Of a DNA stretch of 64,000 nt, positions 15,469 to 59,676 are shown in pieces. The DNA is from Thermodesulfobacteriota bacterium (GTDB lineage: Bacteria; Desulfobacterota; Desulfobaccia; Desulfobaccales; 0-14-0-80-60-11), in assembly GCA_049322315.1 (NCBI GenBank), contig JBMORF010000076.1, positions 73,221 to 137,220 on the forward strand. Reading direction: 5' to 3'. The notes beneath the pieces were generated by a model. The model was given only the letters and a program-made list of their open reading frames with translations, was not told the DNA's origin and did not search any database. Numbering within the stretch: position 1 is the first letter of the stretch; each line of letters opens with the position of its first letter. A program made the translations under genes and the position numbers.

Positions 15469-16446
15469 CTACAGCCAGCCTGCAGCCTTATACCAGGCTG
15501 CGGCGTCGGCCAGGCCGGTTAACAGGTCCATGGACGGCTGGAAGCCGATCTCGGCCTTGGCCCGGGCATTACTGCATAGCCATTGGGCCTGCCGTATGTC
15601 CCGGAGCTTGTCAAGACTCATTAAGGTGGGAGTGGAGGTGAACTGGGAGGTGAGAGAGCCACCCAGGGCTACCAGACGCATGAGCCACCAGGGCACATAA
15701 AAGGTCAGGTAGCGTTTGCCCAGCGCCCGGCCCGTATATTCCCCGATGGTCCGCCAATCATAATGCCCTTCGCCGCAGATAAAATAGATGCGCCCCTGGC
15801 TCCGGGGGGAGGCCGCGGCCAGCAAGATCCCGGTCACCAGATCGTGGACGTGCGCCAGGCTCACTTTTTGCCCGGGACCGCCGGGAATAACGTGGAGGCC
15901 CCGATTAATGCTTTTGATCAGCAAAAAAGTGTCCCGGTCCCGGGGGCCATAGACCACAGGAGGGCGGATGATGGTGGCGCCGCGGCTTTGGCTGTACTCC
16001 AGGACGGCTTTCTCCGCGGCCAGCTTAGAGGCGCCGTAGGCGGATACGGGTTGCGGCTCCTGGTCCTCGGATAGGGGGGCGCCGGAGCTGGGACCGGCGG
16101 CAGAGAGACTGGAAATTAATACGAATTTTTGCTCTGGAGGACCATAATGCTCACAGGCCTGGAGCAGGTTGAGGGTAGCCTCGAAGTTGGCCCGGAAAAA
16201 GGCGGCCCGGTCCCGGGCCCGGGTGGCGCCGGCCACGTGGAACACCACTTCGGTGTCCGCCACCGCCGGGGCCAGGGAGGCCGGGTCCTGGAAATCCCCG
16301 GTCACCAGAGTTACCGGCAGATTTTTGAGCCAGATAAGGTTGCTGCCCCGGCGCACCAGGCACTTGACCGCGGCGCCTGCGGCCAGCAAGCGATCCACCA
16401 GGTTGCTGCCGATAAAGCCGCTGGCTCCGGTAACCAAGGCGCGCAT
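15469..16446 (-). CDS. Extended-SDR NAD(P)-dependent reductase/epimerase (HpnA / cinnamoyl-CoA-reductase-like)
   Basis: Start at MRALVTGASGFIGSNLV (GxxGxxG). Catalytic 'YGASKLAAE' (YxxxK). Begins 4 nt after the PPTase stop. Confidence 0.8.
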   Translation of the reverse strand: MRALVTGASGFIGSNLVDRLLAAGAAVKCLVRRGSNLIWLKNLPVTLVTGDFQDPASLAPAVADTEVVFHVAGATRARDRAAFFRANFEATLNLLQACEHYGPPEQKFVLISSLSAAGPSSGAPLSEDQEPQPVSAYGASKLAAEKAVLEYSQSRGATIIRPPVVYGPRDRDTFLLIKSINRGLHVIPGGPGQKVSLAHVHDLVTGILLAAASPRSQGRIYFICGEGHYDWRTIGEYTGRALGKRYLTFYVPWWLMRLVALGGSLTSQFTSTPTLMSLDKLRDIRQAQWLCSNARAKAEIGFQPSMDLLTGLADAAAWYKAAGWL

Positions 16447-16450
16447 GGGC

Positions 16451-17218
16451 TTATCCCCCCGGGGCCGGAGTCTTAGGGGCGGCAAGGCGCATCCAGGCCA
16501 CCGAGAGCCAAACCTGGTGCAGGCGGATGGAGGCTACCGCCAAGACTTCTTGACTCCCCCAAGGAGCCGGGTCCGGACCGGGAGCCTCCAAATAGCCGCG
16601 CCAGCAGGGGCCGTGGTCCCCTTTACCGGTGCTTTCCACCCGGATCTGGCGGGGGCCGCAGAAATGGTAGCCGCAGCCCCGGGCTTTCACCACCGCTTCC
16701 TTGGCCGACCAGAGGAGGGCCGCGGCTTCTTCCCGGTCCCCTCCCGTCAGGGAGGTGGCCGCCTGCCACTCCCCGGTCCGAAAGACCTTGTGCACGGGAT
16801 AGGCCCCGGTAAACTCATAAGGTGAGGCCGCGTCCAAGCCGATCCAGGAACTGGTGGTGCCCAGGGCCGCCCACCATGCCCCCGCGCTCCAACTGAAAGA
16901 AACCCCGGGTCCGGGAGCGCCGTCCAGCAGAAGATGGGGTTTGCCCCAGCGGTTTTGCACCAGGGACAATTCCCGAGTCCTGCCGGAGGGGTAGTGTTCC
17001 TGGAGCAGGGCCGACAGGAATTCTTGTTTCATTTGCAAGCTAAAGGACCTGGGCCAAAGACGCCTGGAATTACTCCCGTTCTCCGGCAGTAAGGCCAGAT
17101 AAGCAGGCTCCCCATAGGGAGAATAGAGCGCCCCGCGGCTCACCCCTGGATGGTGGAGGTTCCAGGCCAGAGGGCCATAACTGTCCTGCTCCCTGATTGT
17201 TCCCGATACCTGCATCAT
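16451..17218 (-). CDS. Sfp-type 4'-phosphopantetheinyl transferase
   Basis: 'WIGLDAAS' (the GxD metal site) and 'LWSAKEAVVKARGCG' (the W..KEA..K motif). The start overlaps the PKS stop by 4 nt (atga). Confidence 0.75.
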   Translation of the reverse strand: MMQVSGTIREQDSYGPLAWNLHHPGVSRGALYSPYGEPAYLALLPENGSNSRRLWPRSFSLQMKQEFLSALLQEHYPSGRTRELSLVQNRWGKPHLLLDGAPGPGVSFSWSAGAWWAALGTTSSWIGLDAASPYEFTGAYPVHKVFRTGEWQAATSLTGGDREEAAALLWSAKEAVVKARGCGYHFCGPRQIRVESTGKGDHGPCWRGYLEAPGPDPAPWGSQEVLAVASIRLHQVWLSVAWMRLAAPKTPAPGG

Positions 17219-20200
17219 CCGGAAAACCAGCGCATCTGGAGGTTCCTTACCTGCATCAGGGGCTGGCCGTCGGCGTCGCTGGCTTGGGCGTCCCAGACCA
17301 TGCCCTTATCGTCATCGACGCGCAACCGGGCCTCCAGAATAATTTGCTCCTGATCCCGGCACTGACGGCCAATAACCATCTCCCCAATGGCCACGGGGAT
17401 AAAGGTGCGGTCATCCTCCTCATTTCTCATCTTCAGGTAAAAGCTGGTCATCTGCATCAGGCTTTCCAAGAGATAGGGAGCGTATTGGAGGCTGGGCGCT
17501 TGCAGGTGAGAAAAGTCCGGGTTGATCCGGTAGATGCCCGCGCCTCGCACTACTCCTGGCCCGGAGCCGTCCAAATGGCCCACCACCCTATATCGGCCTT
17601 GCATTTCCGTGTGCTCATCATACCATTCAATGATTTCTTCTAAATCCGCGGGACGAGTGTCCAACTCTTCCAGCTTCACGGGAAAATCCGGGAGATCGAG
17701 CCAGGGTAGTGCGCCTTCTCCCCCCATAAGCACTTGGGCCTGGTAATTGAGGGCTTTCTTCTCCAGTACCCTGCCCGTGGGAGAGATAAGCGGGGTTTCC
17801 ATGGTGAGGTCGCATACCGTCAACCCACCTTGATGTCGGCAACTTTGGCAGGTGATGTAGGAATCGATGGCCACTTCCACCGGGACCTCGATGACCTCGG
17901 TAAACTTTGCCTCTCTTACTCCCAACACCCGCAGGTAGGGATACAGGAGGCGGGATGCTTCCATAAAGGTCTCCAGGGCCATGATGGTGGAGACCAGGGG
18001 ATATTTTAAAAATTTGAAGGGTTTATGGTCGGCGATCCACAGGTCTTTTTCCTGGGAAAACGTCCGGTTCGCCCGTAACCACCCCTGGCGCAGGGAGAGC
18101 TGGGAAACGGCGTCGATCATGGGGAACTGTTCCGGGGCAAAGACCAGACTGCCCGTGGTGACGCCCGGCGAGGGCTGGGGTGCGCTTTCCGTATCCAGCC
18201 GGACGCTCTTGATCTCCGGGAGCCGGGACATGAACATCACCCAGACCTCGTCAGGCTCTCCCAGGAGCAGCTCCCGGCAGAAGAGTTCCGCGAGTTCCAC
18301 CGGCTCAAAATAACCGACCCCCATCTTTTCCAGGAAACGGCGCACCTCTTCGTTGTCGGCCATGCCGCTGCCGCTGATGGGGGGCAGCATCAGGGCCTTG
18401 CACCGGATTTCCGGATGGTTCTCCTTTATCTGACTCAGGAGGCCGGACATCATGCGGTTGGCCGCGGTATAGTTGGACTGCCCCCGGTTGCCCTGAATGG
18501 CCGCCGCGGAAGACAGGGCCACCAGGAAGCGCAAGCCGCTGGACCTGGCGGTGGTGAACAGGTTCCAGAGGCCCCGGAACTTGACGTCCAGGACGCTGGC
18601 GATATCATCGGCAGACAAGTCCGGTAGTAACCGGTCCCGTACCAGGCCGGCGGCGTGCACGATGCCATCGAGCCGGCCGTACTTGTCGAGGATTGCCCGG
18701 ACTGCGGCCTGCACCTGGGCCGGGTCCGTCACGTCGCAGGAGAGATAAGTGACCTCCAGGCCTGAGGCCCGCAGGTCTGCCAGGGTCTTCAGGACCTGCC
18801 GGGCCTGCAAGAGACGGGTAATCTCCCGGCCTAAATTATCCTGGGAGATGTCCGGCTGCTGCTGCATAATCTCCCAGCGCAGGGCTTTTTCCGCAGGCTC
18901 GTCTTCCTGGAGCAGTTCCACCAGCTTCGGCTCCAGGTCGATGGCGGTGCGGCCCAGGATGACCACCCTGGGTTTTAAGGGGGCCAGACCCTTGACCAAA
19001 TGGGGGGTGATGCCGTAACCGCCCCCGGAGAAGACCACCACGTCTTCCCGGTTCAAGGTCAGGCGCGGTTCCCCAGAAACCAAGGACAAAGCCATCCGGC
19101 CTTCCCTGGTCAGGAGCTGCCCTTGCTGATAGATGGTCTCCACCACCGGCTGTCGGGGGTCCAGGGCCTGGCGCAACGCCCGGGTCAGGTCCGCGTCCCG
19201 GTCCAGCCGCAGGGTGCGGCACAATACGGAGGGGTACTCTAAAGCGCTGCTCAGGAAGAGGCCCAGAAGCCCCTGGGCCAGCAGGCCCAACCCGCCGGTT
19301 TCCTCCCCGGAGCAATTAAGGGTGAGGGCAAATTTCTTCCGGGGCGCGGCCACCAAGGTCTGCATCAGGGAGAAAAAGCCCTGGACCAGGTGGGGCAGGT
19401 CCACCATTTCGTGGAGTTCTGGGGTCAGGCTGTCGTCCAGGAGAAAGACCACCCCGGCCAGGGAGTCATCTTCCTTAATCTTGGCCGCGGCCCGGGCGGC
19501 CTCTTCCGGCTGGCGCAGGTCGAAACCCGCCCCCTCCTGGCCCGGGTGAGACTCCAGGAAGGCGAAGGTCTTCGGAGTGACGCCAAAAATCTGGCGGAAG
19601 TGGTCGTTAATCCGTTCCCGCCATTCCGACTTCAGAGTGGGGCAGAACAGGGCCACGGTGTCGGCTGAGGTCAATTCCAGGGGTTGGGGCTCGAAGTCCG
19701 CCAGGGGCGCCGGATGGAAGGTCAGCCGCTTGAGCTTCTCCTCCTCAGGGACCTGGGGCTCCGGAGACTCCCGGCCGGGGGCGGCTGCAGCTTTGGCCGC
19801 CTGGGTCACGGCCCCCGGTTCTCCGCCCCGGGCCGCCACTTCGGCAATCTGGGTGGCCAGTTCCCGGACGGTGCGGACATCCATGAAGTCTTCCAGGCGG
19901 ATTTCAATGCCGAACTTGGTTTCGGCCGCGTCCATGATCACCGGCAGGCGGCTGGAGCGGATGGCCAGGTCGGTCCGCAGGTCCATGTCCGGCTCAATCT
20001 CATCCCGATCATAGCCGGTGGCCTCCATGATGAGGAGGATCACCTCTTCCAGATAGTCGGAGACCGGCTGGGCTCCGGCCGGGACGGGCACAGCCGTTGC
20101 GGCTGCCGGGGTTGGCAGGGCCGCCGCGGCGGCAAAAGCCGAGGTGAGGGCCGAGGCCTGGCTTCCGGCCATCTGCCGGGCTTGCAGCCACTGTTCCAGA

Positions 20201-23200
20201 CTGTCCTCGGAGAAATGGGGATCGTGCTCCCGGCGGATGGCCGCCAGCAGGCCCGGTTTCAAGAAGCGTCCGAAGCTTTCCAGGACAAAGGCGTTGATCT
20301 CCCGCTGGACAATGCGCTCCATAGGGTCCATCGGCGTTATCGGCGTCAGACCGGAGCGCGCCGTGCCGGACGTCGCCGGCGCCGAGGCCGGGCGCTGGCC
20401 CGGAACCGTGGGGAAGGAGATGAACTTCAATGGCTTAGGCGCGGTCAGATGACCACCGGCCACCAGTTGGGCGGTGGCCGTTTTCAGGGTCTGGCCTTCC
20501 GCTTCCGCCAGGCAGGTGGCAATACATCGGGGCGATTCCAGGGTTTCGGTGATGAGATTGCTGAGCGCGTCTCCCGGCCCCACTTCCAAAAAGACCCGGA
20601 TGCCGAAATCCTGCCATAAGGTGCGGACATTGCTGATCCACTGCACCGGAGATTCCAGGTGGGCCATGACGATCTTTTTGATGGCCTCCGGGTCATCGGG
20701 GAAGGGCTCCTTGGTGGTGTTGGAGATCACCGGGATCTTGGGAGCGTGGAAGGGCAAAGGCGTGATGAACGCCAACATATCGTCATGGATCACCCGCATA
20801 ATGGGAGAATGGAAGGACATGCTCACCTTCAGCTGGGTGGCCCGGTAACCTTCGGACTTGATCTCCAGCCGCAGGGCCTGGACGGTGTTAGTCTCTCCTC
20901 CCACCACTATCTGGTTGGGGGCGTTATAGTTGGTGATAAAGACGTCCTTTAAGGCCTTCACCTTCGCTTCCACCAACTCCAGGGGCATGTCGGTGGCGAT
21001 CATGATGCCGGGGTCCAGGTTCAGCAGGCAGGCCTTGTCCATGCAGATGGCCCGCTGGTTCACCAACCGGAAGCCGTCCTCAAAGGAAAATACTCCGGAG
21101 ATAGCCAGGGCCGTGAGTTCTCCCAGGCTGTGGCCGGCCATGGCCTTAGGCCTAATGCCCAGGGAGAGGAGGTACTGCACCATGGCGTATTCCAGGGTGA
21201 AGGTGGCGGGTTGCTGCCAGCGGGTCTTCTGGAGGTCCTCTTCCCGGTTATTAAAGATTAAATCCAAAAGATCGAAATCGGCGAAGGACGCGGCCTGGTC
21301 CATATACTCCCGGATGATGGGGAAGTTTTCATAGAGTTCCCGGCCCATGCCGGAGTATTGGGCCCCCTGTCCGGGAAAGACCAGGGCGAGGGGCGGGGGC
21401 GTGACGTTTTCCGGCCCCAGAAAGACTCCTTTGCGCCCCAAAACCCGCAGGGTCTTCTCCGGGAGAGGACCGTTAGGTGAGAGGGGTTCCAGTTCCTGAA
21501 TCCGGTCTAAGGCCTCCTTTTCGGAGTCGGCCGGCAGGGCCACCCGGTAGGGATGCCCGTCTAACGTAGTGCGGCCGCAAATGACGCCAATGGGGGGGGC
21601 GACTTCCGGGCCGGAAGCCTCAGCCCCGGTGGACTCCGGCGGCAGAGAGACCAAGACGGTGTCCCGGCTGTCCAGTGACTCCTCCAGATGCATGACATAG
21701 TTGGAGCCGCCGAATCCGAAAGAATTTACCTGGAGCCTACGGGGGCGTCCATTGGCGGCGGGCCAGTCCAGGGGCTCGGTGGCCACCATGAGCCCGGATT
21801 CCTCGATGCCCATGGCGGGATCATGGTTCCGGTAGTTGAGGGTGGGGGGAAAGACCCCGGCCTGCATGCCCGAGACGCCCCGGATGAGGCTGTTGATACC
21901 GGAGGCGCCCAGAGTGTGGCCGATTTGGGATTTAAAAGAGGATAACACGGTGCGGCTGTTGCCCTGGTAAAAGGTCTGGAGGGCCTTGACCTCTTCCACG
22001 TCCCCCTGGAAAGTAGCGGTAGCATGGCATTCAATCAGATCCACCGCCTCCGGGCCGTAAGGCAGGTCCTCAAAGGAGGTCCGGATGGCGATCTCCTGGG
22101 TGTCCCGGGAGGATTCCACCAGCCCCAGGTTGTTGTTGGAGGCGCCGGTGCCGGTGAGGTAGGCGTGCACCCGGGCGCCCCGGCGCCGGGCCACCGACTC
22201 CGACTCGATGACGATCATGCCTCCGCCTTCCCCCAGCACCATGCCGTCCCGGGTGAGGTCAAAGGGACGGCTGCCCTCTTCCGGGGGATGCTGCTTTCCG
22301 GAGATGCCCGCCAAGGCCCCCAGCGCCGAAAATTCCAGGAAGTGCATGGGGGTGAGATTCTCTTCGCCGCCGCCGACGATGGCCGCGTCGATGATGCCGT
22401 TGTTAATCATCTGGATGGCGCTGTACAGAGCCACCAGGGAGGTGGCGCAGGCCGCGGACACCGCAAAACTGGGACCTTGAAAGCCGTATTTATTGGAAAT
22501 GAAACCGCCGGCGGTGCAGTTGAGCCTCCCCAGCAGGGTGGTATCGTCAATGGCCAGCCGCCCGTCTTTCACCTCATTGGTGATGGCCTCAGCCAATTCC
22601 GGGGACAGGGAAACCACCCGCTGAATGGTGTGCAGGATTTCATCCCAGGCGCCCCGCACCAACAAGTCCATGAGGGTACCCGCGGCCTCGCCGGAATTCT
22701 GGGAGATAAGCACGCCGATGCGCTCCGGGGGGATGCCGGCGGAGAGGATGCCGGATTCCTCAATGGCCTTGGCCGCCAGCCACAGGGTAAGCCTGGTGGC
22801 GTGGGTCATGGTGCGGAAGTCCTGGGGCGCGATATCCAGGTCCTTCCGGGTGATGACTAAATGATGGAAGGCCCCCACCTGGCAATAGGTTTTCTCCGGG
22901 GTCCGGGGCCGGGGATGGAAAAAGAGTTGATGGTTCCAGCGCTCCGGCGGCACCAGGGTGATGCCGCTTTTCAAAGCCAGGCTGGCAGCCCACACCTCGG
23001 TGGGGGAGTTCCCCAGGGCGTTCACCAGGCTCATGCCGGTGATGGCGATCCTCTCCCCTTCGTCCCTCCGGGAGGTGGAGCCCCGATGCCGGGGTCCCGG
23101 GGTGGCGGTTTTTCGGGGGGCCCCCAATTCCGGCTGCTCTAAGCTAAGGGGACCCTCGGCCAACTCCCGGTGCAGCTCCGCCACGGATTGGACCTGGGTG

Positions 23201-25167: not shown

Positions 25168-25374
25168 CGAAACCTCGCTTATAAATTACTTAATGGTTTA
25201 ATATCACTTTTTCCAGGAATAGAGGAAAAAATGAAGGATATAAGCCCTTTTCCAAAGAAGCAATCCCCTCTAGCCGTCAAGCGCTGAGCTTTTTCAGCCT
25301 GAGGGAGGCATTATTATCACCGGTCAAACTCCAGGTCTGCCTGCCGCGGGTAAGGGGCGGTTATGCATGGCCGT

Positions 25375-26484
25375 TTATAAGCAGTCGGGGCAGTGGAGGT
25401 CGTAGCCGTAACGTTCAAAGGTTGGCCCCCAATGCTGACGTACTTTGGCGATGGTGGCGGCGTCCAGTCTATAGGTGTTTTTCCGGTAATTTTTCTGGGA
25501 TTCCAAATAGGGAACCACCCGGCGCCAACATTCCTCAAACCCAGGCAGGCCGAGGGCGGCATAGATGTTTTGCAAAGTCTCCCGGGGATTGCTTACCAGG
25601 TCTTCGTATCTTACTTCCACCAGGGACCCGGCCGGAATTAACCCCCGATCCCGCTCGTACAGTGAATAAAGCTCGGTATACCAGGATAAAATATTCTTTT
25701 CCACGGCCTCCGGATCGGGAATCTGGAGATGAGTGTAGCTGAAGCCGGTCTGCCACAAATGTTTCATGGAAAGATAGACTTTATAAGGATTGCGGTAAAT
25801 ATGAATAAATTTGGCCTGGGGAAATAATTCCAACAAGAGGCGCACGCGGCCTAAATGGGGGGGTGATTTGAAGACAATCCTCTTGCCTTTGGAAAAGGTA
25901 AGTTTCTCCACAAAATACAAAAAAGCGGCCTTCCATTCATCCAGGTCCTCCTTCTCCAAATGGGCAGGGTCCAGGGCCCCAAAACCATTATCGCCGCTGC
26001 CGGGGAAAAGCACGCGCATATAGGGGGAGACGGTGGCCAGCGCCGCCAGGGCGAATTCATCTTCATGGGGCACTTTGGCGGCAATGGTCATGTTGTCCAT
26101 GGGTCTTTTCGACGGAGAGAAATAGTTGAAGATGGTCATGGCCCAGGGCTGGGTATAGACAAAATGGTGCGGAAACATGACCTGGTAATAAGTAGGCGTG
26201 GTGAAGTTTTCATCCTGATTCAGGAGGTTGTGCAGATGGGTCGTGCCGCTGCGCCAACAACCGATGATAAAAATCGGGGGGGCCACGGGCTTGGTACCCT
26301 TGATCTTATAATCGTTGCAACGGCGTTCGAAGCAGGCCAAAACCGAATTAACACCGGCCATACCAAATAAATAAAGAAGCCGCTGCCAATAGCGGGGAGC
26401 CACCTGAAACCGGTTACGCCACAATACCCGCCAAAGAGTTGTCAAATTCATGCCAGGAATTGCTTGCCAAAATAGTTTTTTCAA
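25375..26484 (-). CDS. PAPS-dependent sulfotransferase (Sulfotransfer_3-like), stand-alone
   Basis: 5'-PSB loop 'IIGCWRSGTTHLHNLL' and a 3'-PB-like 'FIHIYRNPYKVYLS'. 369 aa. Confidence 0.75.
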   Translation of the reverse strand: MKKLFWQAIPGMNLTTLWRVLWRNRFQVAPRYWQRLLYLFGMAGVNSVLACFERRCNDYKIKGTKPVAPPIFIIGCWRSGTTHLHNLLNQDENFTTPTYYQVMFPHHFVYTQPWAMTIFNYFSPSKRPMDNMTIAAKVPHEDEFALAALATVSPYMRVLFPGSGDNGFGALDPAHLEKEDLDEWKAAFLYFVEKLTFSKGKRIVFKSPPHLGRVRLLLELFPQAKFIHIYRNPYKVYLSMKHLWQTGFSYTHLQIPDPEAVEKNILSWYTELYSLYERDRGLIPAGSLVEVRYEDLVSNPRETLQNIYAALGLPGFEECWRRVVPYLESQKNYRKNTYRLDAATIAKVRQHWGPTFERYGYDLHCPDCL

Positions 26485-26784
26485 AGTTTTTAGGACCCCT
26501 ATTACTTCGCATCACCAGGAGCGAGCTTGTATGTTTGCAGGATGATGATTTTTGATGCTTGAGGTTCCTGAAAAAAAACGTCCAGATAAAAGGAAAATTT
26601 AGCCACATCAGAGGCAGCCGGTTTTCCCCGGATATTTCTGGGCCCCTCCGTGGTTAAGAGTTTCTCCCCAGGCGAGTACTTCTTCAATTATACTTAAAGA
26701 TTACCAAAAACCAAAGTTGGCAGGCTGTGGGGGCCAGGGTTGTACCTCTTTTTCCGGGTGATCAATGCCGACGGCAGCATCCCT

Positions 26785-27306
26785 TTAGGAGATATAGCCG
26801 CATTTCTCCAGATAAGTCAGTATCTTGGCCATACTGTCATCAATAGTTTCCTGAGCCGTCTGGACCATAATCTCCGGTGACTCGGGAGGCTCGTAGGGAT
26901 CGGAGACACCCGTGAAATTCGAGATTTCTCCTGCCAGGGCCTTGGCATATAGTCCTTTGGGGTCCCGGGTTTTGGCGACCTCTACAGGACAGTCGCAAAA
27001 GACCTCCAGGTAATGGTCGATAATCTGGCGGTTTTTCGCTCTGGTAGCCGCGTACGGGGAAATCGCGCCGACGATGGCGATTACCTCATTCTTGTTTAAC
27101 AACTGGGAAATGAGGCCCAGGCGGCGCACCTGAATGTCCCGGTCCCGCTGGCTGAATCCCAAATCCTGGTTAAAGGCGGTGCGTATCAGATCGCCATCCA
27201 GTAATTCGACTTTGAGACCCCGGGATTTTAAATGAAAATATATCCCTTGCGACAAAGTTGTTTTTCCAGACGCAGGAATGCCGGTGAACCACAAAGTAAA
27301 GCTCAT
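26785..27306 (-). CDS. cysC: Adenylyl-sulfate (APS) kinase
   Basis: 'LWFTGIPASGKTTLS' P-loop, 'LLDGDLIRTAFNQDLGFSQRDRDIQVRRLG' and 'AISPY'. Confidence 0.85.
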   Translation of the reverse strand: MSFTLWFTGIPASGKTTLSQGIYFHLKSRGLKVELLDGDLIRTAFNQDLGFSQRDRDIQVRRLGLISQLLNKNEVIAIVGAISPYAATRAKNRQIIDHYLEVFCDCPVEVAKTRDPKGLYAKALAGEISNFTGVSDPYEPPESPEIMVQTAQETIDDSMAKILTYLEKCGYIS

Positions 27307-27403
27307 AAGAATATTTAGGTGATGTAAGGATAAAATCTTACGTAGTAAATGTTAATCAACCTGCCGTAGTTTGATCGGGCAGCAGGAAGGCGCAGCACCT
27401 GGG

Positions 27404-28540
27404 TTAGGCGGCCAATTCCTTGCGGTATAACCTGAATCTTTTGTTCACCTTGGCGCCGCCATCAAGATACCATTGGTTGATCAAATCATTGTCTTCCAGG
27501 TTCCAGCCTAATTCAATGTACTGATATCTAGCATACTTTGGATTATCCATCAACAACCGGAACAGGTAATCGAAGGCCACCAGGGGCAGCCCCTGTTGCT
27601 GGTACTTTTTTCTGATGCCAAAGATCATCCCCCGCCAGCCGTTGATCTCTCTTTTGTAAAGGAGATACTTGAGCAAACCCAGGAGTCCCACTTTGCCGTT
27701 GAGCCTTTTTAGCAGGGGATAGATATCGTCGACCACCATCCCCACGCCCACCGGTTCCTCCCCGTCCACCAGGAAGAAACAGAGATCCGGGTCCACGATG
27801 CGCGCCAGGTGGCGGCCCATATCCTCGACTTCGGCGTCGGTCATGGGCACAAACCCCCAGTTGTCGAACCAGGCCTCATGATAGATCTCCTTCACATAAT
27901 TCATTTCCGTGTGGATATCTTTGAGGCGAAAGGGCCGCATCTGGATATTACTCTTGTTGATGATGCGCCGGGCCAGACGATTCACCCAGGGCGGCGGCTG
28001 CCAGCCGCGATCCACCCGGAAGGCCAGCAGATCCTTTTCTTTGGTGAAGCCCTGGGCTTCCACCAACCCCGGATAATAGGAAGGATTATAGCTCATCATA
28101 AATACCGGGGGTTGGGCAAATCCCTCCACCAGCATGCCGCTTTCGTAATTGGTGGAAGGGTTCAAGGGGCCCCGGATAAAGGTCATGCCCCGGCTCCGAA
28201 CCCAGTCCCCGGCCGCGGCCAAGAGGGCTCCCGCAACCTCAACGTCGTCGGCGCATTCAAAAAAACCCCAGATGCCCATGCGCTCATCGTGAAACCGGTT
28301 GTAATTATGGTCCACGATGGCGGCGATGCGCCCCACAATCTCTGAACCGCGCTGAGCCAGAAAGAGTTGGCGCTGGGCGAACTTCCAGAAAGGATGAGCC
28401 TGGGGGTCGAGAAGCCGGGCCACCTCCTTTTTTAAAGGGGGCACCCATTGGGGGTCCCGGGCGTAAATCTTCCAGGGCAGGTCCACAAAGGCCCGTATCT
28501 GCCCGGGTTGCTCCACGGGGATGACTTTCACTTGTTCCAT
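27404..28540 (-). CDS. Large (378 aa) GNAT-fold acyltransferase of unknown substrate
   Basis: 'FVDLPWKIYARDPQWVPPL' N-terminal signature of an uncharacterised GNAT family. Acyl-CoA loop 'IFGIRKKYQQQGLPLVAF'. Confidence 0.5.
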   Translation of the reverse strand: MEQVKVIPVEQPGQIRAFVDLPWKIYARDPQWVPPLKKEVARLLDPQAHPFWKFAQRQLFLAQRGSEIVGRIAAIVDHNYNRFHDERMGIWGFFECADDVEVAGALLAAAGDWVRSRGMTFIRGPLNPSTNYESGMLVEGFAQPPVFMMSYNPSYYPGLVEAQGFTKEKDLLAFRVDRGWQPPPWVNRLARRIINKSNIQMRPFRLKDIHTEMNYVKEIYHEAWFDNWGFVPMTDAEVEDMGRHLARIVDPDLCFFLVDGEEPVGVGMVVDDIYPLLKRLNGKVGLLGLLKYLLYKREINGWRGMIFGIRKKYQQQGLPLVAFDYLFRLLMDNPKYARYQYIELGWNLEDNDLINQWYLDGGAKVNKRFRLYRKELAA

Positions 28541-28605
28541 ATATTCCTAATAACTTTATGGGTATAAGCTTAACTTTGAGCTGTAAGGCTTGAACCTGAA
28601 AAATA

Positions 28606-30177
28606 TCATATCTGAGGATGATATTCTTTCCTAATCTTGAGCATGAATTCCCGGAAAATATACATATCCTCGCCCATAGCCAGTGTTTGCAAGTACTTGA
28701 TCAGACGGGAAGGATTCTGACGATATACTGCCAGTAACTGGCGCCAGAATTGTCCCCGGTAAGAGGCTAAAACTCCCCGGCGCCAACAGAGGGTCACTAA
28801 GGCAAGGAGGGCGTAAAGCTGTGCGGTCAAGGGAGCTTTCGTCCGGGGGCGACTTGGGTTCGGGGGCGCTCCCCGCTTTTTGGCCAGGGCCGCCCGGGTG
28901 GGCCTGATCCTGAGAGCAAACCGGTAAGCCCGTTCCAAAAAATGGCGGGGCTCATAAAGGTCTTCCCATAAATTAAAGTATTCCGCCATGATTTCGGCTT
29001 CCGGCCTGGTGGGCACATAGCTGAGGGTCTTATCCACCAGATCGCTGTTAAATCGGTCTTCCAGCAGGCGTCCTTCCTGCCGGAGGCGATGCTGCAACTT
29101 GGTCCCGGGCAGAGGCACCAGGAAACTGACTTGGAGAAGAGGGGTGGCGGTCTCCTCCACCAGGGCGCGGATACGCTCGCCGGTTCCCGGTTTTTCCCCG
29201 TCCAGGCCGACAATAAAGCTGGCCAACACCCCCAGACCGTTGGCGGTGATGGTGTTAAGGCTATCTGAGAGGGGATTGCGCAGGTTATGATATTTATGGG
29301 CCGCGGCCAGGGCTTCCGGGTCCGGAGACTCAACGCCGATGAAGACCATACTGAAGTTGGCCCGGGTCATGAGATCGATCATTTCCAGATCCTGGGCCAG
29401 GTCCAGCGAGGTTTGCGTCCAGAAAGTAAAAGGCTCCCCCCGCTCCTCTATCCAAGGGATCAAGCGTTGCAGCAAGTCCACGGCATGATTTCGGTTGCCG
29501 ATGAAATTGTCGTCACAAACGAAAACTTCTTTCCTCCAACCCAGGCGGTAAATGGCCTCCAGTTCGGCCATAACCTGAGAGCTGTCCTTGATCCGACACT
29601 TACGCCCAAAGAGGCTGGAGACATTGCAGAACTCACAGGCATAAGGACATCCCCGGGTAGTCTGGATCCCCATGGTCAGATAATGGTGGATCTTGAGGAG
29701 ATCGAAGCGGGGAATCGGCGAGGCGGAAAGCTCAGGTTTTTGCCCCTTATCCAGGACCAACCCCCGGCGGCCTTCTTCAAGAGCGGCAAAGAATAACGGC
29801 AAGGTGTTTTCCGCTTCCCCTTTGATCAGGAGATCACAACCCGCCGCCATCAGTGCCTCAGGCTCGGAACTGGCATAGGGACCTCCCGCCACTACTATTT
29901 TGCCCCGCTGTTTTGCTTCTCGCACCAAATCCAGAAAAGGCAAACGATGGACCACCATGCCGGAAATCATCACCATCTCGGCCCATTCCCAATCCTCGGG
30001 AGTGAGAGTTTCTATTTCCAGATCCACCAGGCGCAATTCCCATTCCGGGGGGAGCAGGGCTGCCACCGTAATCAGGCCCAGGGGCGGGAAAAGGGCTTTT
30101 TTGCCGCTCAATCGGCATAATTCCGGCAACTTCCAGTACAACATCGGGGCCTGCGGTTGGATTAACAAGACCTTCAT
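28606..30177 (-). CDS. B12-binding radical SAM enzyme with a DUF4070-like C-terminal region
   Basis: N-terminal cobalamin-binding Rossmann region (MKVLLIQP..ISGMV..VVAGGP) and the radical SAM cluster 'TTRGCPYACEFCNV' (CxxxCxxC). 523 aa. Confidence 0.85.
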   Translation of the reverse strand: MKVLLIQPQAPMLYWKLPELCRLSGKKALFPPLGLITVAALLPPEWELRLVDLEIETLTPEDWEWAEMVMISGMVVHRLPFLDLVREAKQRGKIVVAGGPYASSEPEALMAAGCDLLIKGEAENTLPLFFAALEEGRRGLVLDKGQKPELSASPIPRFDLLKIHHYLTMGIQTTRGCPYACEFCNVSSLFGRKCRIKDSSQVMAELEAIYRLGWRKEVFVCDDNFIGNRNHAVDLLQRLIPWIEERGEPFTFWTQTSLDLAQDLEMIDLMTRANFSMVFIGVESPDPEALAAAHKYHNLRNPLSDSLNTITANGLGVLASFIVGLDGEKPGTGERIRALVEETATPLLQVSFLVPLPGTKLQHRLRQEGRLLEDRFNSDLVDKTLSYVPTRPEAEIMAEYFNLWEDLYEPRHFLERAYRFALRIRPTRAALAKKRGAPPNPSRPRTKAPLTAQLYALLALVTLCWRRGVLASYRGQFWRQLLAVYRQNPSRLIKYLQTLAMGEDMYIFREFMLKIRKEYHPQI

Positions 30178-30554
30178 CTTTTTCCTGTCTTAAGGGACGC
30201 TATTAACTTAGTCTGTTCCGAGTGGGGGCAGGCTGATTGTGTAGGCTGCAGTTTAGAGGATAACTGCTATTTTCCCCAAACTTTTATTTTAACAAATATT
30301 TTTGCAAAACCACCTAATTTCTGCGGGGGGCAGACAATATCCAACCATCCCGGCCCCTTGCGGCTGCACTCCTGTTGCTCCAGCCTGAAAAACTGCGGGC
30401 GGTTAGGTCAGGGAGAAGGCCCCTGGGAAGAATTTTTCTCCTGCCCACGGAGCATGAAGTGCTTTTGATGAACCTGTTAGAAAGGGGAGCTAGGTGAGGT
30501 TGAGAAGTTAAGGCCCAGGGCCCGGGCGTATAATTTCACAGGTTTTATGGCCAG

Positions 30555-31997
30555 TTAGGCGTTTATCCCCCGCCAGCCTTTGGCATAGTGATTATAGATA
30601 AACAACAGGAGGGCGGCTGCCAGGGCGGCCAGGGCAAAGGGCACCCAGACCCAGGAGGGGTCGTACTGATCCCACAGGATTTGCGTCACCGCGGCCGGGG
30701 ATTGGCCCAGCATCTCCGTTAACCTGGCAAAGGCCTGGGGGCGAGGCGGCAGCTTCTGGACCTGTAATACTTCGGACATATATTTCAGGGCCAGCCCTGC
30801 CTTTTCCCCGGCGCGCTCATAAATCCGCCCGGCCACCAAAGCCCCGAAGCCCCAGCCGATGGCATTGGGGATGTTGGCATAGCCCATGTACAGGGCCTTC
30901 TTATCCGGGGGCGCGATCACGCCCAGGTACTCGTTCAACTTCGGGGAGCAGAGCATCTCTCCCATCGAAAAGCAGGCGATGCCGCCCAGGCAGATGTAGA
31001 TGGACCTGCTTGACCCGGCCAGGTAAAGCCCCGCTCCGGCGATGACAAAACCCCAGAATATGGAAGTGAGGCGGCGCATCTGCCGGTTGACCAGCCAGGA
31101 TAGGGGCGCCACCAAAAGGATGATGAGGAAGGGGTTAAAATTGATCACCCATTCCTGGGCGATCTGGGGACCCCGGGAGACGTCCCGGGAGAGCATGAAG
31201 CCCGGGAGGTGGCGGGCCAGCGCGCTGCTGTCCACCCAGTCGACAATAAAGTTGGGCAGCATATCCCATAGCTGCGTGAACACGGCCCAAAAGAGAGAGG
31301 CAATCAGCAAGAAGGCCAGCAGGCGGAGGTCGAGGAGTTGTCGCACCGTCGTCACCGCTACCTGCAGGGCGCTGGTGGTTTTATCCGCGCCGGAATCCAC
31401 GCGGCGGTAGGACAGGAGCCAGAAGAAGTTCAAGCTGACCATCGCGGCACAGCCAGAAAAGACCAGGGGCCAGGAGTAACCGCAGAGAAAATGGGCCAGG
31501 GGCGCCCCCAAAAAACCGCCCAAATTGACCAACATATAAAAAATGCCCCAGCCCACTCCCGAGGTCTCCCGGGAGAGCATCTTGACAAAGGTCCCCTGCA
31601 CCGGGGGTTTGAAGATGGCGGTCCCCGCGGCCAACAGCAGGCAACCGGCAAAGAACGGCCAGAACTGGCGCTGGGTGGCCATGGTCAAGTAGCCCAGTAT
31701 TTTTAAGAAAATGGCTAGGACAATCTGTCTTTTATAGCCGTAACGATCGGCGCTGCCCCCGGTAAACACCGGCAGGGCGGATTGCACCAGGGCCCACCAC
31801 AAGAAGATGAAACCCTTATCTCCCTGGGTGAAGTGGAGGCCGCCGATTTCATCGGCCTGGGCGATATAAATGGGAATGACCACCCGCACGCCGTAGTAGG
31901 CCAGGCGTTCGGTCATTTCCATGATATTGGCGGCCCAGAAAGGCCAGGCCAGGCCTCGGATCTGGGCCCAGAAGGAGGAGGTATCCCGTTGGCTCAT
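30555..31997 (-). CDS. MFS transporter, POT/PTR2-like
   Basis: ExxERxxYYG-type motif 'EMTERLAYYGVR'. About 12 hydrophobic segments, 480 aa. Confidence 0.7.
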   Translation of the reverse strand: MSQRDTSSFWAQIRGLAWPFWAANIMEMTERLAYYGVRVVIPIYIAQADEIGGLHFTQGDKGFIFLWWALVQSALPVFTGGSADRYGYKRQIVLAIFLKILGYLTMATQRQFWPFFAGCLLLAAGTAIFKPPVQGTFVKMLSRETSGVGWGIFYMLVNLGGFLGAPLAHFLCGYSWPLVFSGCAAMVSLNFFWLLSYRRVDSGADKTTSALQVAVTTVRQLLDLRLLAFLLIASLFWAVFTQLWDMLPNFIVDWVDSSALARHLPGFMLSRDVSRGPQIAQEWVINFNPFLIILLVAPLSWLVNRQMRRLTSIFWGFVIAGAGLYLAGSSRSIYICLGGIACFSMGEMLCSPKLNEYLGVIAPPDKKALYMGYANIPNAIGWGFGALVAGRIYERAGEKAGLALKYMSEVLQVQKLPPRPQAFARLTEMLGQSPAAVTQILWDQYDPSWVWVPFALAALAAALLLFIYNHYAKGWRGINA

Positions 31998-36043: not shown

Positions 36044-37114
36044 ATGATGAAACCTGGAAGTCCTTCCCCGGAACCTAAAATTCCGCCTCTCCGCCTCCTG
36101 GCCTGGGAGACCACCCGGCGCTGCAACCTGGCCTGCCTCCATTGCCGGGCGGCCGCGGGCTCCGGGCCTTACCCCGGGGAACTGAGCACTGCCGAAGGGA
36201 GCAAACTCCTGGACGACCTGGCCACCATGGGCCAGGTGGTGGTTATCTTGACCGGGGGCGAGCCTCTGCTCCGGGAGGATATTTTCGACCTCACGGCCCA
36301 CGGCCACAGATTAGGCCACCGCATGGTGATGGCGGTGAACGGCACGCTCCTCACCCCGGCCATTGCCGCGCGCTTAAAAGAGGTGGGCATTCAACGCTTA
36401 AGCATCTCCTTAGACGGGGCCACCGCGGCCGGCCATGACGCGCTCCGGGCCGTGCCCGGCGCGTACACCGGCGCGCTGGCGGGTATTGCCGCGTGTAAGG
36501 AAGCGGGCCTGCCTTTCCAGATCAATACCACCGTCACCCGGGCCAACCGGAGCGAACTCCCGGCCATCCATGAACTGGCCATTTCTCTGGGGGCCGCGGC
36601 CCACCACGTCTTCATCCTGGTGCCCACGGGCCGGGGCGAGGAGATCCGGGACCAACTGGTGCACCCGGAAGAATACGAAGAGACCCTGGGCTGGCTGCTG
36701 GCGCGCCAGAAGGAAGGCAAACTCTTCATCAAGCCCACTTGCGCGCCCCAGTATTACCGCCTCTGGCGCCAGGACGCGGCCGCCCGGGGGGAGAAGATCA
36801 CCCCCGCCAGCCACGGTATGGAGGCCATGACCAAGGGCTGTTTAGGGGGCCAGGGGTTCGCGTTCGTCTCTTATAAAGGGGAGGTGCAGCCCTGTGGCTA
36901 TCTGGAGTTGGTGGCCGGGAATATCCGGGAGACGCCCTTCCCGGAAATCTGGGCTAATTCCGAACTATTTCAGCAACTTCGCCGGGTGGACGACTACCAC
37001 GGCAAGTGCCATGCCTGCCAGTACCGCAAGGTCTGCGGCGGCTGCCGGGCCCGGGCCTATGCCCTGAGCGGCGACGTCCTGGGGGAAGACCCTATCTGCC
37101 CATATGAGGGCTGA
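36044..37114 (+). CDS. Radical SAM/SPASM haem-pathway enzyme (AhbC/AhbD/NirJ family)
   Basis: 'ETTRRCNLACLHCR' CxxxCxxC cluster. C-terminal SPASM cysteines 'CGYLE..GKCHACQYRKVCGGCRARAY..DPICPY'. Adjacent to an AhbA/B-like gene. Confidence 0.75.
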   Translation: MMKPGSPSPEPKIPPLRLLAWETTRRCNLACLHCRAAAGSGPYPGELSTAEGSKLLDDLATMGQVVVILTGGEPLLREDIFDLTAHGHRLGHRMVMAVNGTLLTPAIAARLKEVGIQRLSISLDGATAAGHDALRAVPGAYTGALAGIAACKEAGLPFQINTTVTRANRSELPAIHELAISLGAAAHHVFILVPTGRGEEIRDQLVHPEEYEETLGWLLARQKEGKLFIKPTCAPQYYRLWRQDAAARGEKITPASHGMEAMTKGCLGGQGFAFVSYKGEVQPCGYLELVAGNIRETPFPEIWANSELFQQLRRVDDYHGKCHACQYRKVCGGCRARAYALSGDVLGEDPICPYEG

Positions 37115-37161
37115 AAAATAAAAAATTTCTCGCAAAGGCGCAAAGACGCAAGAAATTGTCA

Positions 37162-56387: not shown

Positions 56388-56400
56388 TGCATTTCTAACT

Positions 56401-59646: not shown

Positions 59647-59676
59647 TTTTGTCGTTGCTTTTTTTCGACTATTACT

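Follow-up and report, generated by a model that had tools for sequence, protein, structure and literature searches.

Bacterial ceramide synthesis, as described in Caulobacter and E. coli B, uses Spt, bCerS (CC_1154, the YghO protein) and CerR (CC_1164) (PMC9386255, PMC11087976). In the former study yghO is equated with CC_1154, the Caulobacter ceramide N-acyltransferase, and the Rhodobacterial Spt takes a dedicated acyl-ACP (PMC9386255). Pseudomonas sphinganines are made by an iterative PKS, SgaA, and an oxoamine synthase, SgaB (PMC12134224); SgaA is termed only a monomodular PKS there. Pfa-like 'secondary lipid' clusters (Shulse & Allen 2011, PMC3098273) are found in Deltaproteobacteria and their products are mostly unknown by type; links to sphingolipid genes or sulfotransferases are not described in that survey. 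In the Black Sea, sulfate-(1-deoxy)ceramides are sulfated on their C32-C39 fatty acyl chain; anaerobes, Desulfobacterota among them, are named as their source, and no genes have been linked to them (PMC11334938, PMC12619533).

The locus studied here lies in a 64-kb stretch of DNA, called the window below. Its GNAT protein and SDR are homologous over their full length to the acyltransferase and reductase that serve the ceramide pathway, Spt-like genes occur in the same locus of its relatives, and in both systems the acyl donor would be held on a dedicated carrier protein. Unlike that pathway, the window lacks Spt, AcpR and AasR, its GNAT falls in a separate clade whose members always accompany a 2,650-aa synthase, and a sulfotransferase (ST), CysC and a B12-binding radical SAM (B12-rSAM) enzyme are added. 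As in SgaAB of Pseudomonas fluorescens MYb115 (PMC12134224), an iterative bacterial PKS appears to feed long chains into a sphingolipid pathway, but in SgaAB, which has no sulfation module, the PKS works with an oxoamine synthase to form the sphingoid base, whereas the invariant partner here is a bCerS paralogue. With the Pfa-like clusters the window shares KS-AT-ACP-KR domains, a PfaD/FabK-type ER and a dedicated PPTase. It differs in having one polypeptide with one ACP and a PKS-type DH, and since it has no CLF, FabA-type DH pair or tandem ACPs it is not a PUFA synthase. We propose, with a probability of about 0.5, that the block is an ST-bearing form of a conserved cassette (bCerS paralogue, iterative PKS, PPTase and CerR-like SDR) which branched off from bacterial sphingolipid biosynthesis, and that its products are sulfated ceramides or 1-deoxyceramides whose N-acyl chain is very long.

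Organization of the locus

The original prediction of eight co-directional minus-strand genes at 15469-31997 is borne out by an ORF check and profile searches, which found all eight ORFs with their stated domains:

15469-16446, minus strand: SDR, 325 aa from the ATG at 16446; Epimerase / 3-beta-HSD type (Pfam)
16451-17218, minus strand: PPTase, Sfp-type, ACPS family (Pfam E 1.6e-9)
17215-25167, minus strand: PKS, 2650 aa, iterative fully reducing type I synthase
25375-26451, minus strand: ST, Sulfotransfer_3 (Pfam E 1e-38)
26785-27306, minus strand: CysC, APS_kinase (E 9e-53)
27404-28540, minus strand: G2, tandem GNAT, 378 aa, fold-based call
28606-30177, minus strand: B12-rSAM enzyme, B12-binding, Radical_SAM and DUF4070 (Pfam)
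30555-31997, minus strand: MFS transporter, MFS_1 (E 1.8e-26)

Pfam and TIGRFAM calls agree with most of the labels first given, except that 'POT-like' is unsupported for the transporter and the 378-aa GNAT is invisible to profiles. Both 4-nt junctions claimed earlier are read in the sequence: the TGA of the PKS and the ATG of the PPTase overlap in a common ATGA, and 4 nt separate the TAA of the PPTase from the ATG of the SDR. The PPTase is probably translationally coupled to the PKS, and it is kept downstream of the PKS in relatives. The remaining intergenic gaps are wider (207, 333, 97, 65 and 377 nt), and promoter and terminator scans of the block gave chance-level scores; together with the gaps of 207-377 nt, these scans make co-transcription of the block no more than possible. 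PAS/histidine-kinase genes bound the block on either side.

The synthase

Profile searches place an NMO/FabK-type ER (residues 346-671), KS (705-1112), AT (1263-1546), a single ACP (1709-1772), KR (2124-2271) and PS-DH (about 2515-2648) in the PKS. The KS Cys-His-His, AT GHSLG, KR Ser/Tyr and DH HxxxKxxxxP motifs are present in the translation, and an extra ~340 aa at the N-terminus resembles another NMO barrel in degenerate form (E 0.057). These calls agree with the lipid-type ER-KS-AT-ACP-KR-DH synthase proposed originally and support an iterative, fully reducing enzyme with its own PPTase. Its orthologues in related loci have 2577-2710 aa and 49-83% identity. Domain searches found no release domain (TE, reductase or condensation) in the PKS; the lack of a thioesterase, already remarked for this cluster, extends to the whole cluster and its relatives.

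The tandem-GNAT protein and the SDR

The 378-aa protein gave no match to Pfam, NCBIfam or PDB sequences even at E 10. Its AlphaFold model (pLDDT 80.7) matches tandem-GNAT structures (Foldseek E 5e-11), and the protein is predicted to fold as a tandem GNAT; the earlier GNAT label holds for the fold, while sequence profiles are blind to the protein. Over its full length it is 30% identical to E. coli YghO (E 7e-48) and 32% identical to its positional counterpart in a Caulobacter-type cluster from Roseomonas. Identity to the Spt-adjacent proteins, named G1, is 39-42%. G1 and the PKS-adjacent G2 have 34 positions in common that are conserved to at least 95%, and show a single fixed difference. By sequence, G2 is a distinct paralogue, not an orthologue, within the YghO/CC_1154 (bCerS) family. 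Since it belongs to this family, a candidate N-acyl transfer would fill the missing release step, and we propose that G2 is the chain-release enzyme of the PKS. Where G1 co-occurs, G1 could be the ceramide synthase, and the role of G2 could be O-acylation, acylation of another amine, or priming.

The SDR (Pfam Epimerase, E 2.9e-39) is assigned to the extended, 3-beta-HSD/HpnA/OleD-like type, as a sequence homologue of the CerR-position reductase in bacterial sphingolipid clusters. It shares 38-39% identity with the Spt-neighbouring SDRs of loci L077 and L045 and 30% (E 5e-37) with the SDR of the E. coli spt-acp-SDR-FAAL-yghO locus; Spt-side SDRs resembling it (30-39%) occur in E. coli, Myxococcaceae and Desulfuromonadales. 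The original prediction had the GNAT as an added enzyme and let the SDR reduce or release the product. By homology neither is a generic tailoring enzyme: they belong with the bacterial ceramide synthase and with the SDR in the ceramide-reductase position, in a cassette that is physically joined to serine-palmitoyltransferase (Spt) genes in relatives.

Distribution of the cassette and linkage to Spt

G2 lies immediately upstream of an orthologous PKS in more than 40 of 83 loci (80 from a genome scan and three others). G2-PKS-PPTase was found in more than 40 species of several phyla, with G2-PKS in Desulfobacterota, Desulfuromonadales, Nitrospirota, Aminicenantes, Acidobacteriota, Verrucomicrobiota and Binatia. 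GNAT-PKS-PPTase(-SDR) is a widespread, uncharacterised cassette of which the window block is an ST-bearing version. With this cassette in dozens of species across phyla, the cluster is not the unique orphan it was thought to be. Synteny extends over G2-PKS-PPTase(-SDR) and, in a subclade, over the ST and rSAM genes, but not over the MFS gene.

In Geobacter/Desulfuromonadales a single cluster reads SDR-Spt-bCerS-PAP2-G2-X-PKS-PPTase. The whole SDR-Spt-G1-PAP2-G2-X-PKS order was read in L030 and L045, and parts of it on truncated contigs (L036, L039, L043); L033 has SDR-Spt-PAP2-G2-X-PKS-PPTase without G1. In close relatives of the window, a MacAB-TolC-type exporter and a Spt-like oxoamine synthase flank the cluster. 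One of these, L084 (identity to the window: G2 69%, PKS 67%, SDR 70%, ST 67%), has a Spt-like oxoamine synthase and MacB-ABC-OEP-MFP directly beside G2-ST-PKS-PPT-SDR. The best NCBIfam match of this oxoamine synthase is SPT with 414 bits versus 338 for bioF, and the layout of L087 is the same. No Spt/oxoamine synthase gene was found within the 64-kb window, and none of the best 120 oxoamine synthase matches lies on a contig with the length of its source contig. Most G2-PKS loci of Desulfobacterota likewise have no Spt at a distance of up to 10 kb.

These absences would suit another reading, in which G2 offloads the chain to a non-sphingoid amine or alcohol (such as an amino acid, a polyamine or a head-group amine), the SDR serves as reductase for a keto group on the chain, and sulfation by the ST gives a sulfated N- or O-acyl lipid. 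Its further grounds are that the G2 clade is separate from Spt-adjacent G1, that G1 already fills the role of ceramide synthase where both occur (L030, L045), and that tandem GNATs acylate amines of many kinds. We consider this unlikely, but the most probable of the alternatives. Nearly all highly conserved positions are common to G1 and G2; the Spt-like oxoamine synthase adjoins the cassette in the closest long-contig ST-bearing relatives (L084, L087) and the ST itself in L086; and the Desulfuromonadales Spt clusters contain an embedded G2-PKS. Moreover, Spt is frequently not co-located with bCerS and CerR (PMC11334938).

In a further reading, the PKS and PPTase would supply the long-chain base, taking over from AasR/AcpR as the acyl-ACP source of an Spt-like enzyme, as SgaA does for SgaB; G2 would be a standard ceramide synthase that draws its acyl donor from the cell, and sulfation of the product would fall to the ST. 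The preference of the Rhodobacterial Spt for a dedicated acyl-ACP (PMC9386255) and the long-chain sphinganines of SgaA and SgaB (PMC12134224) are in line with this, as are the FAAL/ACP genes of the E. coli and Roseomonas clusters, which have no counterpart in PKS-linked clusters. However, it is G2 and not Spt that invariably adjoins the PKS, an adjacency kept in dozens of Spt-less loci, and the environmental sulfated lipids have ordinary C18-C22 sphingoid bases and an unusual acyl chain (PMC11334938). This arrangement is quite improbable, and we prefer the PKS as the source of the N-acyl chain.

Sulfotransferase and APS kinase

The ST has an RSGTT 5'-PSB loop and a hydrophobic stretch at its N-terminus. 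Its matches in PDB sequences are 2z6v, 2zq5 and 4gox (E 2.9e-7), the last deposited as 'Polyketide synthase', which we take to be the ST domain of the Synechococcus olefin synthase (Ols). We assign it as a putative stand-alone, PAPS-dependent ST of the mycobacterial Stf / Ols-ST type. The Stf family, which sulfates a hydroxyl on a long lipid chain, provides its best relatives of solved structure (2z6v, 2zq5), albeit with low identity, unrelated substrates and another genomic context. Many ST homologues carry the JGI/KEGG label 'omega-hydroxy-beta-dihydromenaquinone-9 sulfotransferase'. CysC scores 199.5 bits against TIGR00455 (cutoff 138.7), also exceeds the NF003013 cutoff, and is predicted to be the APS kinase that converts APS to PAPS. 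Profiles confirm the separate ST gene with an APS kinase described originally, and ST-PKS cassette linkage is conserved in five contigs read directly. The ST lies between G2 and PKS in L004, L005, L084 and the P0129 contig; in L006 it is directly downstream of G2, and the contig ends short of the PKS. Eight further contigs, paired by length between the G2 and ST match lists, probably carry the same linkage. A single G2 subclade holds all ST-positive clusters, with or without CysC. CysC is found in L004, L005 and the P0129 contig, and L087 has it upstream of G2; it is absent from the L084 cluster.

ST and CysC have the lowest GC3 of the cluster and are flanked by gaps among its largest, and a ST-CysC module of the same family lies remote from any PKS in L085. 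Such features would fit a block that is no single unit: the synthase, with the domain set of a complete FAS, would be a type I FAS for bulk membrane lipids, and ST and CysC an unrelated insertion, for example for polysaccharide sulfation. A core-FAS role was speculated for the Type S cluster of Desulfobacterium autotrophicum (PMC3098273), which may have the same architecture. We find this very unlikely, as the ST slot between G2 and PKS is kept even though ST identity across linked contigs drops to about 59-67%, and the genes linked to the cassette are those for Spt, PAP2 and exporters rather than for glycerolipids. No polysaccharide genes adjoin the block.

In CurM and cyanobacterial Ols ST-TE, a Sulfotransfer_3-type PAPS-dependent ST is likewise tied to a PKS, and the original prediction allowed for sulfation followed by elimination. 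The ST would then sulfate a beta-hydroxyacyl intermediate, with sulfate as the leaving group and an olefin or hydrocarbon as product. The resemblance to 4gox, the dedicated PAPS supply and the KR and DH of the PKS suit such chemistry, but we judge it extremely unlikely. The ST stands apart from the PKS polypeptide, a thioesterase is missing from cluster and relatives alike, and the closest solved structures are mycobacterial lipid sulfotransferases of the Stf type. The window-type ST also adjoins an oxoamine synthase and exporter without a PKS in L086. Since L001 and L007 are ST-negative yet otherwise identical, the ST is better seen as an accessory decoration than as release chemistry.

The B12-rSAM enzyme and the transporter

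The Pfam domains and a CxxxCxxC motif agree with the predicted B12-binding rSAM enzyme with a DUF4070 tail, while every NCBIfam match is far under its cutoff. L004-L007, L084, L087 and the P0129 contig all have the gene beside the cassette, with measured identities of 38-76%; in L001 a B12-binding/radical-SAM gene, unscored, follows the SDR. As a class B (cobalamin-binding) rSAM enzyme it probably acts on the lipid at an unactivated carbon, with methylation the likeliest reaction. It co-travels with the ST-bearing G2 subclade; the MFS gene does not. The 'POT-like' label of the transporter is not sustained (PTR2 19 bits, cutoff 27), leaving a generic MFS_1 protein. Its gene is parted from the rSAM gene by 377 nt and has no homologue in any related locus, and its membership in the cluster is doubtful. 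The proposed role as cluster exporter is weakened accordingly, and two relatives have an adjacent MacAB-type ABC exporter.

Proposed pathway and product

In the pathway we propose, the PPTase, whose function is assigned by homology, would activate the single ACP of the synthase. The synthase would then iterate to a long, mostly saturated acyl chain, which would stay on the ACP; the synthase has no release domain. G2 may release the chain by attaching it to the amino group of a 3-keto or 1-deoxy sphingoid base, supplied by a Spt-like oxoamine synthase presumably encoded beyond the window. The CerR-like SDR, from its homology, would reduce the 3-keto group. APS, plentiful in a sulfate reducer, would be converted to PAPS by CysC, and the Stf-type ST may sulfate a hydroxyl of the PKS-derived chain. 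The B12-rSAM enzyme would alter the chain at an unactivated carbon, most likely by adding a methyl group. Export might involve the MFS protein in the window organism and a MacAB-TolC-type pump in relatives.

A sulfated long-chain lipid, as originally hypothesized, is still the most likely product class; the sphingolipid-like class and N-acyl release had not been considered. The match between the Black Sea lipids and the predicted product is circumstantial, and chain length, hydroxyl position and sulfation site are beyond what the sequence can tell. If the proposal is true, the sulfated very-long-chain ceramides of anoxic seas and sediments, so far unexplained, may come from clusters of this kind.

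The gene cluster and its synthase

Eight consecutive minus-strand genes are present in the ORF table at 15469–31997, as the original prediction had it, and its domain calls are upheld by Pfam and NCBIfam. PAS/histidine-kinase genes form the edges of the block on both sides. The cluster is composed of the following genes:

15469–16446, minus strand: SDR, extended, Epimerase / 3-beta-HSD type (Pfam, NCBIfam)
16451–17218, minus strand: PPTase, ACPS family (Pfam)
17215–25167, minus strand: PKS, 2650 aa, with an NMO/FabK-type ER (346–671), KS, AT, one ACP, KR and a PKS-type DH (Pfam, NCBIfam)
25375–26451, minus strand: sulfotransferase (ST)
26785–27306, minus strand: APS kinase CysC
27404–28540, minus strand: 378-aa protein, member of the PKS-adjacent clade G2 of a tandem-GNAT family
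28606–30177, minus strand: B12-binding radical SAM enzyme (rSAM)
30555–31997, minus strand: MFS transporter

The tight junctions described before can be read in the sequence: the PKS stop and the PPTase start overlap in ATGA, and the SDR ATG at 16446 lies 4 nt past the PPTase TAA. The label "POT-like" for the transporter has to be dropped, as only MFS_1 passes, with PF00854 (PTR2) reaching 19 bits where 27 are needed and TIGR00924 reaching 54 where 130 are needed. No counterpart of this transporter is found in any related locus by tblastn of the window proteins against 83 loci. Promoter and terminator scans of the cluster gave results at chance level and are uninformative on operon structure.

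Elsewhere in the window, at 36044–37647, the gene of a radical SAM-SPASM protein precedes that of an AsnC/NirDL-type (siroheme decarboxylase-like) protein, a pair resembling alternative haem biosynthesis genes. One 541-aa ORF at 50472–52097 combines N6/N4 DNA methylase and Mrr-type nuclease domains. LPS core genes form a block at 52423–60756 that includes a Kdo transferase, an MsbA-like ABC exporter, an 810-aa LpxK-GT9 heptosyltransferase fusion and a second GT9 protein.

The catalytic motifs of the PKS appear intact in translation (KS Cys/His/His, AT GHSLG, KR Ser/Tyr, DH HxxxKxxxxP), and its first ~340 residues form an additional, weakly NMO-like domain. It shares with the Pfa-type PUFA/secondary lipid synthases a PfaD/FabK-type (NMO) ER (E = 2.2e-27) together with KS-AT-ACP-KR, and the PfaA model TIGR02813 matches it partially, with 452 bits against a cutoff of 1010. 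In contrast to the Pfa type, it has a single PP-binding domain, a single KS and a DH of the PS-DH type, and lacks tandem ACPs, a KS-CLF pair and a FabA-type DH. Its identity as a PUFA synthase is ruled out by the single ACP and the absence of CLF and FabA-type DH. Among the Pfa-like secondary lipid synthase types surveyed by Shulse & Allen, none is described with the gene set of the window (PMC3098273).

By domain profile, release domains of the TE, R or C type are absent from the PKS, and no TE or alpha/beta-hydrolase match is found by Pfam and NCBIfam across all eight genes. The C-terminus of the PKS is the DH, and the ST has a gene of its own upstream. This differs from the release module of CurM/Ols, in which the end of the PKS carries an ST joined to a thioesterase or with one after it. 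A CurM-like elimination after sulfation is kept as an unlikely alternative.

Identification of the 378-aa protein and the SDR

The 378-aa protein is beyond the reach of profile search, with no match in Pfam even at an E-value of 10, in NCBIfam, or among PDB sequences by phmmer. An AlphaFold model built from 17 homologues (pLDDT 80.7, pTM 0.81) contains two GNAT lobes in a chain of about 375 residues, and its top Foldseek matches are tandem-GNAT proteins (2wpw, 5kf1, MshD, Eis and FemX; E = 5e-11, TM about 0.5). The earlier label "GNAT" is correct as to the fold, and fold and synteny together identified the protein where sequence profiles gave nothing.

More than 2,400 homologues of the 378-aa protein are found. 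Running the Spt-adjacent clade of the family (G1; Spt, serine palmitoyltransferase) by tblastn against plasmids and chromids returned two informative loci, from Roseomonas and E. coli. The Roseomonas locus has a Caulobacter-type layout with an Spt-like aminotransferase, a DAG-kinase-family protein, an LptF/LptG pair, the G-family protein, a nucleotidyltransferase, a fatty acyl-AMP ligase and an epimerase-family SDR. The order at the E. coli yghO locus is lptF-lptG, then spt-acp-SDR-FAAL, then yghO. The window protein aligns with E. coli YghO over its full length (30% identity, 383 aligned positions, E = 7e-48) and with the Roseomonas cluster protein at 32% identity (E = 7e-58). Padilla-Gomez et al. 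(PMC9386255) give CC_1154, the ceramide N-acyltransferase of Caulobacter, as the protein to which yghO (ECD_02850) is homologous; CC_1154 is named bCerS or CerS in other work (PMC11324152; PMC11087976). The SDR beside yghO is listed as a homologue of CC_1164, the ceramide reductase CerR (PMC9386255; PMC11324152; PMC11087976).

The SDR of the window is 30% identical to the SDR of the E. coli spt-acp-SDR-FAAL group (E = 5e-37) 37–38% identical to the SDRs of the Myxococcaceae loci, and 38–39% identical to the Spt-adjacent SDRs of loci L077 and L045. The NCBIfam profile matches (HpnA/OleD-like) are alike for the window and L077 SDRs. In Myxococcaceae the gene order is serine palmitoyltransferase (513 bits on NF047600), G1, SDR, and no PKS adjoins G1.

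The window protein is 39–40% identical to Spt-adjacent G1 proteins (39–42% for clade G1 against G2) and falls in clade G2, not in that of the Spt-adjacent copy as an orthologue of the latter would. The two clades have 34 common positions conserved at ≥95% in both, with a single fixed difference, which argues for the same chemistry in G1 and G2. Based on the alignments with YghO and the E. coli SDR and on the G1/G2 conservation, the "GNAT" is a PKS-dedicated paralogue of bacterial ceramide synthase (bCerS), with N-acylation of a sphingoid base as its predicted activity, and the SDR is a CerR-like extended SDR. Both G1 and G2 occur in L030, L036, L039, L043 and L045. Where G1 is also present, G2 may perform a different acylation, such as O-acylation; chains of ≥C30 are reported for 1-O-acyl ceramides (PMC12619533).

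Some further observations concern the reference loci. In four Myxococcaceae loci (L074, L075, L077 and L079) two bCerS-type copies flank the SDR (Spt-G1a-SDR-G1b). Of 5426 complete E. coli genomes, 4549 contain yghO. One of them was inspected (L090, NZ_AP022222.1 775700–794818), and its yghO has spt, acp, an SDR, a fatty acyl-AMP ligase and another lptF/lptG pair as neighbours, a full Caulobacter-like ceramide set.

Distribution and synteny of the cassette

A search with an alignment of the tandem-GNAT family, one genome per species, confirmed at least 579 relatives, and all eight window proteins were searched by tblastn against 83 loci (80 from the genome scan and 3 others). Clade G2 comprises those proteins whose identity to the window copy is ~45% or more. 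With a few exceptions, among them L021, L024, L042 and L053, every locus of sufficient length has G2 directly upstream of an orthologous ER-KS-AT-ACP-KR-DH synthase. The PPTase follows the synthase, and the SDR is located after the PPTase or just ahead of G2. This G2-PKS cassette occurs in Desulfobaccales, Syntrophobacterales, Desulfobacteraceae, Geobacter/Desulfuromonadales, Nitrospirota, Aminicenantes, Acidobacteriota, Verrucomicrobiota and Binatia. A cassette that recurs across so many phyla is no "orphan", as the cluster had been called; it is better described as the ST-bearing variant of a widespread, sphingolipid-linked PKS cassette. The family and synteny statements, taken as a whole, are held with high confidence.

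The link to sphingolipid genes is direct in several loci. L030 and L045 contain one cluster in the order SDR-Spt-G1-PAP2-G2-X277-PKS, with the PPTase present where the contig runs on, and parts of this order are seen on the incomplete contigs L036, L039 and L043. The Geobacter locus L033 reads SDR-Spt-PAP2-G2-X277-PKS-PPTase, without G1. The PAP2 protein of these clusters weakly resembles phosphoinositol dihydroceramide synthase. In the close relative L084 (identity to the window: G2 69%, PKS 67%, SDR 70%, ST 67%, rSAM 49%) an Spt-like oxoamine synthase divergently flanks G2-ST-PKS-PPT-SDR, followed by a MacB-ABC-OEP-MFP exporter and a B12-rSAM. This oxoamine synthase is 41% identical to myxobacterial SPT, and in NCBIfam it scores highest against the SPT model, with 414 bits vs 338 for bioF. 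L087 has the same layout. The order on the P0129 contig is exactly that of the window, rSAM-G2-CysC-ST-PKS-PPT-SDR.

X277 is a conserved protein of about 257–281 aa (L033:11110–11943; L045:8869–9714; L030:9492–10265) that matches nothing in Pfam or NCBIfam. In loci from Geobacter, Nitrospirota, Acidobacteriota and Verrucomicrobiota its gene separates the bCerS paralogue from the PKS. The window lacks X277, and ST and CysC take its slot there.

Sulfotransferase, CysC and the B12-radical SAM enzyme

The ST matches PF13469 (Sulfotransfer_3) with 134 bits against a cutoff of 27, and its 5'-PSB loop RSGTT, seen in translation, aligns to PRTGTT of 2z6v. The best PDB sequence matches are 2z6v and 2zq5, Stf-type sulfotransferases of mycobacteria that were deposited as uncharacterised, and 4gox, the Ols ST domain, deposited under the title "Polyketide synthase". 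CysC scores above the curated equivalog cutoffs (TIGR00455, 199.5 vs 138.7; NF003013, 168.1 vs 163). In a sulfate reducer, the formation of PAPS from APS needs CysC alone. The original idea of a sulfated long-chain lipid survives as a predicted product class.

Within the 83 loci searched by tblastn, the placing of ST and CysC between G2 and PKS is confined to L004, L005 and L006, the closest relatives, and both genes are absent from L001 and L007 (G2 identity 72–73%). Eight further contigs, recognised by their identical length, are common to the G2 and ST match lists. In a neighbour-joining tree of G2, every ST-positive cluster falls in one subclade, with the ST-negative L001 and L007 nested inside. 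GC3 is lowest in the cluster for ST (0.63) and CysC (0.62) vs 0.72–0.78 in G2, PKS, PPTase and SDR, and the gaps flanking the two genes (207, 333 and 97 nt around 25375–27306) are reported as the widest of the cluster. Because of the low GC3 and wide gaps, the data fit a later insertion of ST and CysC into the slot held by X277 in other phyla. We also keep the unlikely alternative that the synthase is a bulk FAS with an unrelated ST inserted beside it.

The ST is found in other contexts as well. At L085:8750–11714, two tandem STs (55–57% identity to the window ST) lie beside CysC near Tad pilus genes, without a PKS. L086:10001–16943 contains an ST, an Spt-like oxoamine synthase, MacB, ABC, OEP and MFP, with no PKS or G2 within 10 kb. 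This module is a hint that ordinary acyl chains also go into sulfated sphingoid lipids.

PF02310, PF04055 and PF13282 (DUF4070) all match the rSAM, whose CxxxCxxC motif is CPYACEFC. The N-terminal B12-binding domain and radical SAM core correspond to the class B cobalamin-dependent architecture. No functional subfamily reaches its cutoff in NCBIfam, the best being TIGR04013 with 104 bits vs 251. A ladderane-type or hopanoid-type enzyme is ruled out, TIGR04072, HpnR and HpnJ being far under their cutoffs. Mss-type tail-to-tail coupling was considered as a possible function of the rSAM, and it would give a route to C32–34 chains. In L004 (7331–9752) the enzyme is apparently encoded by two ORFs, a B12-binding part (8156–8638) and an rSAM+DUF4070 part (8649–9752), with a corrinoid adenosyltransferase gene ahead of them.

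Proposed mechanism and the origin of the sphingoid base

Of the canonical ceramide set (Spt, bCerS and CerR), the window holds the CerR-type SDR and lacks Spt: no Spt-type oxoamine synthase is found in the 64 kb by SPT tblastn at E = 1e-5 or by Pfam on the other large ORFs, and none is placed on the source contig among the homologues listed. Such an enzyme is present in L084, L087, L030, L033 and L045; at most Desulfobacterota G2-PKS loci it is absent within 10 kb.

We propose that the iterative, fully reducing synthase would produce a long saturated acyl-ACP, and that G2 would release the chain by N-acylation of a sphingoid base, which an Spt-like enzyme with its gene at another place in the genome would supply. 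The SDR would reduce the 3-keto group, the ST would sulfate a hydroxyl of the PKS-made chain with PAPS formed from APS by CysC, and the rSAM may methylate or otherwise alter an unactivated carbon. This mechanism is plausible because Rhodobacterial Spt uses a dedicated acyl-ACP as donor (PMC9386255) and Pseudomonas fluorescens sphinganines are made by an iterative PKS and an oxoamine synthase (PMC12134224). The same two precedents are compatible with a PKS that feeds Spt and not G2, a less likely alternative we keep beside the near-constant adjacency of G2 and PKS. Likewise kept as less likely is the acylation of another amine acceptor by G2, to be weighed against the conserved positions it shares with G1. 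The alternatives are retained because no Spt is nearby, G2 is a paralogue, co-transcription is hypothetical, and the length of the chain, the source of its hydroxyl and the site of sulfation are unpredictable from sequence. To the general scheme of a sulfated very-long-chain ceramide we assign a probability of about 0.5.

Possible relation to the sulfated ceramides of euxinic waters

Sulfate-(1-deoxy)ceramides with the sulfate on the fatty acyl chain occur in Black Sea euxinic water and sediment; the acyl chain is mostly C32–C34, up to C39, and C42 in sediments, and correlations led to their attribution to anaerobes, Desulfobacterota among them (PMC11334938; PMC12619533). No assignment of genes to them was found in the literature searched. 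The predicted product class matches these lipids. We suggest tentatively, with the odds against it, that the cassette is the genetic basis of the ≥C30 sulfated ceramides/1-deoxyceramides of euxinic water and anoxic sediments, with G2 drawing its acyl group from the ACP of the megasynthase.

If this is true, G2 would be a new kind of ceramide synthase doubling as a PKS release enzyme, and the synthase a bacterial machine for very-long-chain fatty acids. A head-group-like sulfate would be placed on the acyl chain by ST and CysC, and branches or odd carbons would come from the B12-rSAM. The ST-less cassette would mark producers of very-long-chain sphingolipids in many anaerobic phyla, Geobacter included. 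As a candidate release enzyme, the PKS-dedicated ceramide synthase paralogue would solve the problem of the missing thioesterase.

Bacterial sphingolipids have recently been found to be far commoner than supposed, and their producers were assigned by correlation alone. Genes for sphingolipid chain elongation and sulfation have been lacking so far, and the cluster is a testable gene set for both. The G2-PKS adjacency, with or without ST, is a metagenome marker for producers and bears on the use of these lipids as biomarkers. A Pfa-like "secondary lipid" synthase family that has been without a known product since 2011 is now tied to sphingolipid metabolism.
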